A stretch of 16,353 nucleotides of DNA from a virus (taxonomy: Duplodnaviria; Heunggongvirae; Uroviricota; Caudoviricetes): IMG/VR virus record IMGVR_UViG_2585427750_000025, positions 1 through 16,353 of that record. One strand, written 5' to 3'. The notes below the pieces were generated by a model. The model worked only from the letters and a program-made list of their open reading frames with translations. It searched no databases and was not told the DNA's origin. Shown piece after piece: positions 9,631-13,880 of the stretch. The first letter of the stretch is position 1, and each line of letters starts with the position of its first letter. A program made the position numbers and the translations under genes.

Positions 9631-10983
<1,353 letters not shown>

Positions 10984-11023: not shown

Positions 11024-11102
11024 ATCAAATTAAACCACACCTATGGTGTATGCATTTATTTGCATACATTCAATCAATTGTTATCTAAGGAAATACTTAC
11101 AT

Positions 11103-11381
11103 ATGCAACTTACAAGTACTCGCAAGAAAGCGAATGCAATTACAAGCAACATCCTAAATCGAATTGCTGTACGTGGTCAGCGAAAGGTTGCTGATGCATT
11201 AGGGATCAATGAATCGCAAATTTCGCGATGGAAAGACAGCTTTATCCCAAAGATGGCCATGCTTCTGGCTGTGCTGGAGTGGGGTGTTGAAGACGAGGAA
11301 TTAGCGGAGCTGGCAAAGAAAGTAGCCATGGTGCTGACAAAAGAAAAGCCTCAAGACTGCGGCAACAGTTTTGAGGCCTGA
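11103..11381 (+). CDS. cII: CII-like transcriptional activator, 92 aa
   Basis: ATG at 11103 in the lambda cII context (TAAGGAAATACTTACATATG); product shares the HTH and SQISRWK ... MLLAVLEWGV core with lambda CII but diverges at both ends. Confidence 0.75.
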   Translation: MQLTSTRKKANAITSNILNRIAVRGQRKVADALGINESQISRWKDSFIPKMAMLLAVLEWGVEDEELAELAKKVAMVLTKEKPQDCGNSFEA

Positions 11382-11415
11382 TGTAGAAAGACTGGATCAA
11401 TCCACAGGAGTAATT

Positions 11416-11577
11416 ATGACAAAACGTCGTAAGAAATACCAGGAAAAAGAAGAGATTCGACACCCTGATTCACCTGAGGGATTAGTGGTAGCCGCAGCAA
11501 ATAACAGGGCGTTCGCAGAGCGCCTTGTTGGTGTTTACAGACTAGCCAAAGCAGGAGTGAAACATGGGCGTCGTTAA
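11416..11577 (+). CDS. Small basic ORF in the lambda O start context, 53 aa (separate gene or frameshifted initiator N-terminus)
   Basis: ATG at 11416 preceded by CACAGGAGTAATT, almost the same context as the lambda O start; overlaps the initiator ORF by 14 nt in another frame. Confidence 0.3.
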   Translation: MTKRRKKYQEKEEIRHPDSPEGLVVAAANNRAFAERLVGVYRLAKAGVKHGRR

Positions 11578-12454
11578 GTTAGCTGATTACAGGCATAACC
11601 CTGTAAAACATCAGGAGGCATCCAGTATGGGGTATGTCTCTATACACCGCCAGTTTATGGACAGCAGGCTCTATAAGGACTCTCAGGCAGTACATCTTTG
11701 GCTTCACTTAATCCTCAAGGCTAATCACGAATCTACTGTCGTCAATACGGATATCGGTCCGATAACTGTTGATCGCGGTCAGATGATAACTGGACGCCCG
11801 TCGCTGGTCAGAGAAACATTCATCCCCGACAACAAAGTTCGGAGCTTATTACGGACTTTTGAGTCGAAAGGGATGCTTAATATTTCCTCGATGGGGAAGA
11901 AATTTAGCCTGTTTACAATCGTTAAATATGACGATTTTCAGGCAAAAAATTGTCCAACGGTTGTCCAACGGTTGTCCAACGCAAACACCAGTAATGGCGC
12001 GGCTCTCAGCGGAGATTGTCCAACGGTTGTCCAACGGTTGTCCATAAACAATAATATAAATAATATCTCTAATACTGACGTATTAGAGAGTGCCACAGCA
12101 GACAAAAAGTCTGACAAGAAAAAACCTTCCGTTAGCTGTCAGGATGTTGTCGATGCTTACCACGAAATCCTTCCTGAAGCGCCAAGAATCCGCGCACTGA
12201 ATGACAAGCGTAAAAACCAGATCCGAACGTTCTGGCGCAAAGCCGGAGTGATAACCCGCCAGCTTGACGGGCATGGGTTCACGATGCAGGACTGGAGAAA
12301 TTATTTGAGCTACGTAGGAGAAAATTGCCGATGGATGTTCGAAGAGCGCCCAAACCATCAACGCGGAACTGTCTGGCACAAAAAGGGATTTGATTTCCTG
12401 CTTAACGATAATACCTACCTGAAAGTTCGTGAGGGTGAACACGATGACCGATAA
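11564..12454 (+). CDS. Replication initiator (O-like), 296 aa, with origin iterons inside the gene; alternative start at 11627
   Basis: Occupies the O position after cII; N-terminal DNA-binding-like domain, low-complexity linker encoded by the iterons, C-terminal domain; stop overlaps the helicase start by 11 nt. Confidence 0.6.
   Translation: MGVVKLADYRHNPVKHQEASSMGYVSIHRQFMDSRLYKDSQAVHLWLHLILKANHESTVVNTDIGPITVDRGQMITGRPSLVRETFIPDNKVRSLLRTFESKGMLNISSMGKKFSLFTIVKYDDFQAKNCPTVVQRLSNANTSNGAALSGDCPTVVQRLSINNNINNISNTDVLESATADKKSDKKKPSVSCQDVVDAYHEILPEAPRIRALNDKRKNQIRTFWRKAGVITRQLDGHGFTMQDWRNYLSYVGENCRWMFEERPNHQRGTVWHKKGFDFLLNDNTYLKVREGEHDDR
11950..12048 (+). repeat. Origin iterons: six copies of TTGTCCAACGG in two triplets (11950-11982 and 12016-12048)
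   Basis: Direct 11-bp repeats (third copy of each set slightly degenerate) separated by about 33 bp, inside the initiator gene; encode the repeated peptide CPTVVQRLS. Confidence 0.7.
12049..12090 (+). promoter_or_regulatory. AT-rich stretch next to the iterons (candidate DNA unwinding element)
   Basis: aaacaataatataaataatatctctaatactgacgtatta immediately right of the iterons, as in lambda ori. Confidence 0.5.
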
Positions 12455-13880
12455 TTTTTATGCGCCGCCCCATAGCATCGAGGCAGAGCAGGCGGTGATT
12501 GGTGGATTGCTTCTGGATGATGACAGCAGTGAGCGCGTCCAGAAAGTTCTGGCGATGCTGAAGCCTGATTCATTTTACAGCCGACCACACAAAATCCTTT
12601 TCGAAGAAATAACCAGAATGCACCGGGAGCAAAAGCCAGTAGATGGCCTGACGCTTTTCGATGAACTGGATCGCAAATCGTTAACGGTGTCTGTTGGCGG
12701 TTTTGCTTATATCGCTGAGATCGCAAAGAACACGCCAAGCGCCGCAAACATCGTTGCCTATGCAATGCAGGTTCGCGAAACCGCAATGGAACGCTACGCC
12801 ATCAACCGCATGACTGAAGCGACGGAATTGCTCTATTCCCGCAACGGAATGACTGCAACGCAGAAGTACGAAGCTATTCAGGCGATTTTCACGCAACTGA
12901 CAGACCATGCAAAAACCGGATCGCGTCGCGGCCTTCGCTCATTTGGTGAGGTAATGGAAGACTGGGTTAGCGACCTTGAGAAGCGATTTGACCCGTCAGG
13001 CGAACAACGAGGAATGAGCACAGGGATCCCATCGCTGGACAGGATGCTGTCACCGAAAGGTCTGGTGAAAGGCTCTCTGTTTGTCATTGGCGCTCGCCCT
13101 AAGATGGGGAAAACGACGCTATACAGCCAGATGGCAATCAACTGCGCAGTGCATGAGAAAAAGCCCGCTCTGATGTTCAGCCTTGAAATGCCCGGTGACC
13201 AGATACTGGAAAAACTGGTAGGACAGAAGTCAGGTGTTAACCCGAATATTTTTTACCTTCCGGCGACAAATGACGCTGATGACGGCTATCAGGGTGATTA
13301 CGATGGTGACTTCAACAGGGCGATCGAAACAGCCAATCGCTTGAGTGAAATCGACATGCTTTACATCGACGACACGCCGGGATTATCTCTGGCTCAAATC
13401 GTCAGCGAAAGCCGTCGAATCAAGCGAGAAAAAGGATGTGTTGGCATGATTCTGGTCGATTACCTGACACTAATGACCGCTGAGAAGGCCGATCGCAACG
13501 ACCTTGCTTACGGCATGATCACCAAAGGACTGAAGAACCTTGCCAAAGAGCTTGATTGCGTTGTTGTGCTTCTGACGCAGCTTAACCGCGCACTGGAAAG
13601 CCGAACCAATAAACGCCCATTACCAAGTGACTCACGAGATACAGGGCAGATTGAACAGGATTGCGATTATTGGGTTGGGATCCATCGTGAAGGCGCTTTT
13701 GATGACAGTGTTCCACCTGGTGAAACCGAACTAATCCTTCGTCTCAATCGTCATGGCAATACCGGCACGGTGTATTGCATTCAGGCAAATGGCGCTATTT
13801 ATGACACAGACCAACAGTCTGCTGAAATGCGCCGACGTGAACGCGAGGAACCGCAGTCCAAGAAGAAAGGAGGATTCTGA
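12444..13880 (+). CDS. DnaB-family replicative DNA helicase (P22 gene 12-like), 478 aa
   Basis: N-terminal DnaB-like domain (HSIEAEQAVIGGLLLD), Walker A GARPKMGKTT, Walker B-like MILVDYLTLM; ATG at 12444 with GAGGGTG RBS. Confidence 0.85.
   Translation: MTDNFYAPPHSIEAEQAVIGGLLLDDDSSERVQKVLAMLKPDSFYSRPHKILFEEITRMHREQKPVDGLTLFDELDRKSLTVSVGGFAYIAEIAKNTPSAANIVAYAMQVRETAMERYAINRMTEATELLYSRNGMTATQKYEAIQAIFTQLTDHAKTGSRRGLRSFGEVMEDWVSDLEKRFDPSGEQRGMSTGIPSLDRMLSPKGLVKGSLFVIGARPKMGKTTLYSQMAINCAVHEKKPALMFSLEMPGDQILEKLVGQKSGVNPNIFYLPATNDADDGYQGDYDGDFNRAIETANRLSEIDMLYIDDTPGLSLAQIVSESRRIKREKGCVGMILVDYLTLMTAEKADRNDLAYGMITKGLKNLAKELDCVVVLLTQLNRALESRTNKRPLPSDSRDTGQIEQDCDYWVGIHREGAFDDSVPPGETELILRLNRHGNTGTVYCIQANGAIYDTDQQSAEMRRREREEPQSKKKGGF

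Follow-up and report, generated by a model that had tools for sequence, protein, structure and literature searches.

We found that three overlapping genes lie downstream of cII in the 16,353-nt stretch of DNA analyzed here (the window): a 53-codon leader of the HK97 gp53 family, a 296-aa replication initiator and a DnaB-type helicase. With a probability of roughly 90%, this region belongs to a mosaic lambdoid (P22/Sf6-like) E. coli prophage and is its early-right replication module, in which the leader, the initiator with a putative iteron origin inside its coding sequence and the helicase are separate overlapping genes. Modules of this type have already been described, and the discovery value is small, the module being common and already annotated and published.

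Gene content and setting of the replication module

Upstream of the module we found a gene for a CI-type repressor (10032-10664, minus strand), a Cro-like gene and, upstream of the leader, the cII gene (11043-11381; Pfam Phage_CII, 1.5e-44). The module itself runs on the plus strand, where the leader gene (11416-11577) and the initiator gene (11564-12454) are followed by a gene for a replicative helicase of the P22 gp12/Sf6 gp44 type (12444-13880), recognized by its Pfam DnaB_C domain (2.9e-60), its DnaB N-terminal domain (1.4e-30) and the annotation of Sf6. The helicase and initiator genes share 11 nt where they meet. Across the approximately 100 loci that we examined, a DnaB-type helicase always came after the initiator, and a lambda P-type gene was present in none of them. 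At its left end, the window holds a host MFS transporter gene (1-1248), and phage-like sequence begins near 1690.

Nucleotide comparison demonstrated that the segment 11380-12460 (1081 nt) is 99.2-99.3% identical to IME10, Huey, Sf6, mEpX2 and others, and approximately 99% identical to HK75, HK106, mEp234 and others. The segment is carried near full length by 143 of 5426 complete E. coli genomes and in part by about 1000; in the E. coli genomes that carry it near full length, the PGAP annotation shows two separate hypothetical genes. All seven named phages agree with the present module in their three genes and overlaps, in having six iterons, and in the AT-rich tract and inverted repeat. Sf6 differs from the present module by point changes only: one base is substituted in each of two iteron units (TTGTCCAACGT and CTGTCCAACGG), and its initiator differs at three residues (K15Q, S107C and V155A). 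The Sf6 record (AF547987) lists gene 42 (“HK97 53 protein homolog”), gene 43 (putative replication initiation protein) and gene 44, annotates a putative rep_origin over the same repeats, and labels the start context “boundary sequence bsq5”. An equivalent rep_origin, with different repeats, is annotated in the record of HK620. Both the putative origin and the two-gene layout are already known from GenBank annotation and the literature.

The leader gene starts within a conserved 33-nt lambdoid boundary block (ACTGGATCAATCCACAGGAGTAATTATGACAAA, 11391-11423, not assigned to a strand), which we delimited by alignment with lambda, HK620 and HK97 and which corresponds to Sf6 bsq5 and to the block described in PMC3349717. 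This block matches the start of lambda O with 3 mismatches and is also present in HK620 and HK97. On its plus strand are a Shine-Dalgarno sequence (AGGAG, 11406-11410) and the ATG at 11416, and on its minus strand are the pO promoter and the 5′ end of oop. It has been previously reported that the conserved 33 nt comprise pO and the oop 5′ end, that in 23 lambdoid phages oop occupies the interval from -90 to -10, counted from this ATG, that the same ATG starts lambda O, P22 orf48/hkaW or the HK97 gp53 homologue, depending on the phage, and that lambda “is naturally missing” the orf (Hayes et al. 2012, PMC3349717). The leader gene takes the Shine-Dalgarno sequence and ATG that serve O in lambda.

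An oop-like antisense RNA can be placed on the minus strand at 11330-11406 (ends approximate), with its 5′ end about 10 nt upstream of the 11416 ATG and a terminator hairpin at approximately 11346-11379, then a U run. Folding of this minus-strand RNA gave a strong hairpin followed by the U run (MFE -29.5 kcal/mol, z -3.4). A scan of the whole window against Rfam returned no family at the gathering score, and the oop-like RNA is not covered by it.

The leader gene and its junction with the initiator

The initial annotation had observed that the ATG at 11416, in the context of the lambda O start, opens a 53-aa ORF that is in a different frame from the long initiator ORF and overlaps it by 14 nt, and our reading of the sequence confirmed each of these points. 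It had left three explanations side by side, namely a separate small basic protein, an assembly error or natural frameshift, and a programmed frameshift. The first of these is the one borne out by the analysis. The 53-aa product (11416-11577, plus strand) matches PHROG 1331, the family of HK97 gp53 and Sf6 gp42, over its full length (positions 1-53 of the 53 profile positions, E 1.4e-37), and it agrees with this family in length (about 52-55 aa), in its position between cII and the initiator, and in its stop/start overlap. The protein is basic (pI 10.7; 14 K+R versus 6 D+E) and is predicted to be helical, the AF2 model consisting of three helices at moderate confidence (mean pLDDT 70).

The junction of the two genes (11553-11577, plus strand) provides further evidence. 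A Shine-Dalgarno sequence of the initiator's own (AGGAG, 11553-11557) lies 6 nt before the initiator ATG at 11564, the two genes share the 14-nt overlap ATGGGCGTCGTTAA, and the leader stop codon is at 11575-11577. The initiator frame, which differs from the leader frame by +1, is closed by a TGA at 11558-11560 and is open for a single codon before the ATG, so that leader and initiator could be fused only by a +1 shift inside a stretch of about 14 nt. Among 80 IMG/VR loci the 14-nt overlap was identical in all 80 and the context upstream of it in 72, and both the junction and the upstream Shine-Dalgarno sequence were conserved in 13 divergent loci. The small ORF likewise ends 14 nt after the initiator ATG (ATGG[G/C]CGTCGTTA[A/G]) in the phages HK97, Sf6 and ENT47670 (of Cronobacter) and in 11 Enterobacter, Lelliottia and metagenome loci; in each, a Shine-Dalgarno sequence stands 5-8 nt before that ATG. 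A two-gene junction in which the initiator has its own Shine-Dalgarno sequence was found in about 90 further loci.

It could be argued that the small and long ORFs are in fact one initiator gene, either split by an assembly error or natural frameshift or joined by a programmed frameshift, given that the two ORFs overlap, that the small one begins at exactly the position of the lambda O start, and that a few GenBank records show a single gene O or replication protein over this area. We give this explanation almost no credence. It is contradicted by the occurrence of the same junction in over 90 independent sequences from phages, prophages and metagenomes, by the lack of fused homologues described below, and by the presence of the leader before three unrelated kinds of initiator: the Pfam Phage_rep_O kind (270-280 aa), the present kind (296-298 aa) and a kind of 385-389 aa. 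As for a programmed frameshift, we found neither an X XXY YYZ slippery heptamer in the ORF nor a homopolymer run near the junction, so the search for slippery motifs that the initial annotation had proposed came back empty, and the downstream gene has an AGGAG and an ATG of its own, which are conserved at every locus compared. Furthermore, a fused leader-initiator protein, expected at about 345 aa, was seen neither in the best 120 of 1605 initiator homologues, which measure 264-318 aa except for two odd entries (310 and 453 aa, neither of them a leader fusion), nor in the 68 leader homologues of 29-91 aa that were retrieved from 5.8 billion proteins (0/68 fused). Cronobacter phage ENT47670, in which one replication gene is annotated, still has a separate, unannotated leader ORF. 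The alignment of homologues, which had also been suggested at the outset, recovered the two-ORF arrangement in HK97, Sf6, HK620, HK022, ST160, ENT47670, the 11 genome and metagenome loci and the 80 IMG/VR loci, and this rules out a frameshift. Family membership, conservation of the junction, unrelated downstream initiators, selection and the local sequence agree, and the small and the long ORF are therefore two genes. The small ORF deserves annotation as a real gene, separate from “O”; in some records it is absorbed or left out altogether.

We then compared leader alleles. Six divergent alleles gave dN/dS values of 0.08-0.20, with dS at or near saturation, and the differences between alleles fall mostly at third codon positions. 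Insertions and deletions in leader homologues are in frame, and 14 alignment columns are invariant among 15 homologues of 71-92% identity. Judged by this pattern of substitution, the small ORF is under purifying selection, and the leader is a conserved phage small protein.

The HK97 gp53 family is one of several leaders that occupy this position. A second, unrelated leader of 48 aa (the HK022 gp53/HK620 hkaW/ST160 orf28/P22 orf48 type) shares this start ATG and extends 8 nt into its initiator gene (ATGAGTAA), and a third, of 46 aa, in Pantoea phage PA-1 overlaps its own initiator by 4 nt (ATGA). We considered homology between the gp53-type and the 48-aa leaders and rejected it, their likeness being confined to the first 11 residues (E 0.015). 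The first 6-17 codons of the initiator go along with the leader, reading MGVVKLADYR behind gp53-type leaders and MSNISNLAEAREARRLQ behind those of the hkaW type; the gp53-type leader forms a recombining unit with the initial 6-10 codons. Because the leader travels with these first codons, the mosaic boundary lies inside the disordered N-terminus of the initiator.

One explanation of these findings is that the small ORF merely serves as a translated upstream ORF that brings ribosomes to the initiator start, its peptide having no function of its own. The occurrence of three unrelated leaders at one position, each overlapping the initiator ATG (by 14, 8 and 4 nt), and the lack of such a leader in lambda are in keeping with this explanation, as is our search of the accessible literature for a function of gp53 or orf48, which returned annotation-level statements only. 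We nonetheless consider it unlikely: conservation of the amino-acid sequence is not expected of a pure spacer ORF, and the low dN/dS with mainly third-position changes at nearly saturated synonymous sites, the in-frame indels, the 14 invariant columns and the helical model of moderate confidence all speak against it. The stop/start overlap probably couples translation of the initiator to that of the leader, as judged solely from the geometry of the junction, and the facts about the leader fit both translational coupling and a small protein with a real role. A more specific proposal can be put forward as speculation, and we regard it as doubtful: the basic leader protein of about 6 kDa might be a dedicated component of lambdoid modules that encode their own DnaB-type helicase, possibly an accessory factor or regulator of the initiator or of helicase loading, with the non-homologous P22 orf48/hkaW and PA-1 leaders playing the same role and the stop/start overlap setting the ratio of leader to initiator.

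The initiator and the putative origin within its gene

The 296-aa initiator (11564-12454, plus strand) is the equivalent of Sf6 gp43 and gave a full-length match to PHROG 345, annotated as ‘replication initiation O-like’. Its residues 22-186 match DnaD-like helicase-loader PHROGs, and the AF2 model together with a fold search predicts a winged-helix N-terminal domain (aa 26-123, nt 11639-11932), as in DnaD-like winged-helix initiators. The same model predicts a disordered linker (aa 124-188, nt 11933-12127) and a C-terminal domain (aa 189-293, nt 12128-12442), all on the plus strand. Confidence in the model is moderate (mean pLDDT 64), and the Foldseek matches were weak, the best having an E of 0.03. 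A search of PDB sequences with the initiator returned no match at E ≤ 1, and searches of Pfam and NCBIfam with the leader and initiator proteins returned no significant match (DUF7376 scored 16.7 bits against a cut-off of 27). Since neither Pfam Phage_rep_O (PF04492; no match at E ≤ 0.1) nor lambda O (no detectable similarity, BLASTP E 4.5) matched the initiator, filing it under Phage_rep_O is unwarranted despite the ‘O-like’ annotations.

Repeat searches and the GC profile confirmed the report, made in the initial annotation, of two triplets of 11-bp iterons and an AT-rich stretch inside the initiator gene. The first triplet (11950-11982) consists of TTGTCCAACGG, TTGTCCAACGG and TTGTCCAACGC, and the second (12016-12048), which starts 66 nt after the first, consists of TTGTCCAACGG, TTGTCCAACGG and TTGTCCATAAA; neither was assigned to a strand. 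Tandem Repeats Finder, with TTGTCCAACGG as the unit, called 2.9 copies at 11950-11981 (100% match, score 64) and 2.6 copies at 12016-12044 (score 58). A 30-nt block (ATTGTCCAACGGTTGTCCAACGGTTGTCCA) occurs twice, 66 nt apart, with 100% identity, and the start-to-start spacing of the six units is 11, 11, 44, 11 and 11. The heptamer TGTCCAA occurs 5 times in the 16.3-kb window, with all 5 copies in the arrays, and the sixth unit reads TGTCCAT. GC content is 28% at 11900-11949 and 28-30% at 12025-12099, and an AT-rich region of approximately 20% GC (12044-12089, likewise without a strand) has at its end an inverted repeat whose perfect 10-bp arms, TCTCTAATAC (12066-12075) and GTATTAGAGA (12080-12089), enclose a 4-nt loop. 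The iterons, the AT-rich stretch and the inverted repeat all lie inside the ORF 11564-12454, within the part that encodes the predicted linker (nt 11933-12127), so that the locus has direct repeats in the initiator coding sequence with an adjoining AT-rich region, as in lambdoid in-gene origins. DnaA boxes (TTATCCACA, at most 1 mismatch) were absent from 11400-12500, and their total in the window was at chance level. Promoter-like matches in the iterons and a terminator-like call on the inverted repeat are consensus matches generated by the repeats themselves.

Comparison with relatives supports the view that this region works as a putative in-gene iteron origin, by analogy with lambda and P22. 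The core TGTCCA was invariant in 24 of 24 units from four divergent relatives (including ST160, ENT47670 and the locus L014), while 4 spacer bases vary, and the spacing of 11, 11, 44, 11 and 11 is identical in ST160, ENT47670 and L014. In ENT47670 and L014 the inverted repeat is kept by compensating changes (CTCTCTTAC/GTAAGAGAG). In Pantoea phage PA-1 (42% identity) this position is taken by another palindrome (CTCAATATC/GATATTGAG), and the 3+3 layout is built from another repeat, TTACCAACAGA. The same layout is seen in HK620 and HK022 with the repeat TACCAGCAnAT; in these phages the N-terminal domain has diverged and the C-terminal domain is approximately 98% identical. The type of repeat changes with the N-terminal domain, from TGTCCAA here to TACCAGC in HK620/HK022 and TTACCAAC in PA-1. 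In-frame variants with 3, 6 or 9 iterons (initiators of 274, 296 and 318 aa) are common, and at loci with 5 or 7 units the initiator is frameshifted and truncated. The occurrence of units in threes follows from the reading frame, because 3 × 11 = 33 nt equals 11 codons. The invariant core, the layout and the covariation of repeat and N-terminal domain lend support to the in-gene iteron origin with lambda-like logic that the initial annotation had envisaged. The core, the spacing, the covarying palindrome and the 3/6/9 variants provide a ready design for a first biochemical test.

The repeats are also translated, and the motif CPTVVQRLSN is seen twice, so they could in principle be nothing more than a duplicated peptide motif in a low-complexity linker with no role as an origin; experiments on this exact origin or initiator, including a direct replication experiment on this sequence, were not found in the searchable literature. 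We judge this alternative very improbable. The period of 11 bp is not a multiple of 3 and successive units are read in different frames, three in all, so the repeat is a feature of the DNA and not of the peptide. The encoded peptide varies (CPTVVQRLSN, CPTDVQRMSN and CPTNVQDLSN) while the core stays constant, and in HK620/HK022 and PA-1 a different N-terminal domain goes with a different repeat sequence, whereas layout and spacing are retained. In addition, the repeats have an AT-rich tract and a covarying palindrome next to them, and the encoded segment is predicted to be disordered. Returning to the putative origin, Zaworski et al. (2020, PMC8022706) named the 11-bp repeat TGTCCAACGGA as the likely origin of phage L. 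Published support for binding of the repeats by the initiator and for replication of the fragment is indirect and concerns regions that are not of this exact type: genetic specificity has been ascribed to the replication region of phage L (Hilliker 1981, to the extent cited in PMC8022706), and phagemid replication has been described for a P22 fragment spanning cro-c1-orf48-O-P (PMC8585504).

An inverted copy of the iteron at 11653-11663 (GTTTATGGACA), which forms a pair with the final iteron, was also considered as a seventh and autoregulatory site. This candidate was rejected because TGGACA is not conserved in relatives that have the same iterons, which read GAT.

Proposed mechanism and comparison with other phages

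The arrangement suggests how the module may work. The winged-helix N-terminal domain would bind the six TGTCCA(A) sites, which form two triplets with one turn of the helix (11 bp) from site to site, and the resulting nucleoprotein complex might distort and open the adjacent AT-rich region with its inverted repeat. The C-terminal domain would then recruit the phage's own DnaB-type helicase, replacing the route through lambda P and host DnaB. Phage helicases of this kind reportedly replace host DnaB, a finding attributed to work on P22 gp12 by Wickner in 1984 (as cited in PMC8022706). The origin DNA would sit in the stretch that codes for the disordered interdomain linker, where the protein could tolerate it.

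Like ori-lambda, the putative origin lies inside the initiator gene, with repeats followed by an AT-rich region; in both cases it falls between an N-terminal origin-binding part and a C-terminal helicase-engaging part of the protein, and the cII-oop-start-site context is shared. The two systems differ in that lambda has four 18-bp sites whereas the direct repeats here number six, are 11 bp long and form two phased triplets, that the initiators show no detectable sequence similarity, as noted above, that lambda uses the loader P with host DnaB whereas the present module encodes its own DnaB-type helicase, and that the leader ORF of the present module is missing from lambda. The origin specificity had initially been described as new relative to lambda. 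It does differ from that of lambda, but it is not new, the repeats being already annotated as a putative origin in Sf6 (AF547987) and reported as a likely one in phage L (PMC8022706).

Phage L gene 18, as described in PMC8022706, has the same core (TGTCCAACGG) and six 11-bp repeats in a 3+3 layout inside the initiator gene. The initiator of the ST160/SE1 type, ST160 gp18, is 82.5% identical to the present one over residues 23-296 and is likewise followed by a DnaB-type helicase gene, but ST160 differs in having an A between the cores (ATGTCCAACGG), in its unrelated 48-aa leader with an 8-nt overlap, and in the first ~20 residues of the initiator. HK620 (hkaW-O-P) and HK022 (gp53-gp54-gp55) resemble the present module in gene layout, in the 3+3 spacing at 11 bp, in helicase type, in a nearly identical AT-rich tract and inverted repeat and in the C-terminal domain, and differ from it in the diverged N-terminal domain, the iterons and the unrelated 48-aa leader.

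A different combination is seen in HK97 (gp53-gp54-gp55). HK97 gp54 differs from the present initiator in being lambda-O-like, with related loci matching PF04492, and a search of HK97 for TGTCCA iterons found none; what gp54 shares is a distantly related C-terminal domain (23% identity), and it too is paired with a DnaB-type helicase encoded downstream. The HK97 leader protein is 100% identical to the present one, the 14-nt junction is identical as well, and the two initiators have their first 10 residues, MGVVKLADYR, in common.

The leader gene and the start of the initiator

At its start (window 11564-11593) the initiator has 6-10 residues, MGVVKLADYR, that are common to three otherwise unrelated initiator families among the compared loci (L005, L008-L018), and these residues move together with the leader gene. 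The disordered N-terminus of the initiator therefore contains a mosaic recombination boundary. A third leader ORF, encoding a basic 46-residue protein unrelated to the others, was found in Pantoea phage PA-1 (L100, 737-877), where it precedes an initiator 42% identical to that of the window, with a 4-nt overlap (ATGA) between the two. In the PA-1 record this ORF is labelled a 'tail protein', apparently in error. In the GenBank records of IME10 (JF974339), phage 2851 (FM180578), YYZ-2008 (FJ184280) and Cronobacter phage ENT47670 (NC_019927), a replication or 'O' gene is the sole feature annotated across the leader ORF; among these four, the sequence of ENT47670 was checked, and the leader ORF is present there and unannotated.

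Iteron variation at the origin

The number of iterons at the origin is polymorphic among the compared loci, with three in L032 (initiator of 274 aa), five in L047, seven in L031 and nine in L052 (initiator of 318 aa), and copy number also varies in the further entries P0069-P0090 and P0100-P0110. Loci commonly differ by a 66-nt unit, consisting of a triplet and spacer, whose insertion or deletion keeps the reading frame. When one 11-bp unit alone is added or lost, the initiator is frameshifted and truncated, and loci with such changes are either sequencing errors or defective prophages. At 11653-11663, GTTTATGGACA matches the last iteron (12039-12049) perfectly in inverted orientation. Because this copy is not kept in relatives carrying the same iterons, the match is probably due to chance.

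Flanking features of the window

The 3' end of cII is overlapped by an oop-like antisense RNA (window ~11330-11406, minus strand), whose predicted fold (MFE -29.5 kcal/mol, z -3.4) comprises a strong GC-rich hairpin followed by a U run. An Rfam scan of the window returned no family matching this RNA. Its promoter would be positioned in the conserved 33-nt block (11391-11423) and the opening codons of the leader.

In the collections searched, coverage of the window by any one E. coli genome or phage did not exceed 75%, and therefore its mosaic combination is unrepresented among them. At its left end the window carries a host oligosaccharide MFS transporter gene (1-1248) and phage-like sequence begins near 1690, so that a prophage-host junction falls within the window.
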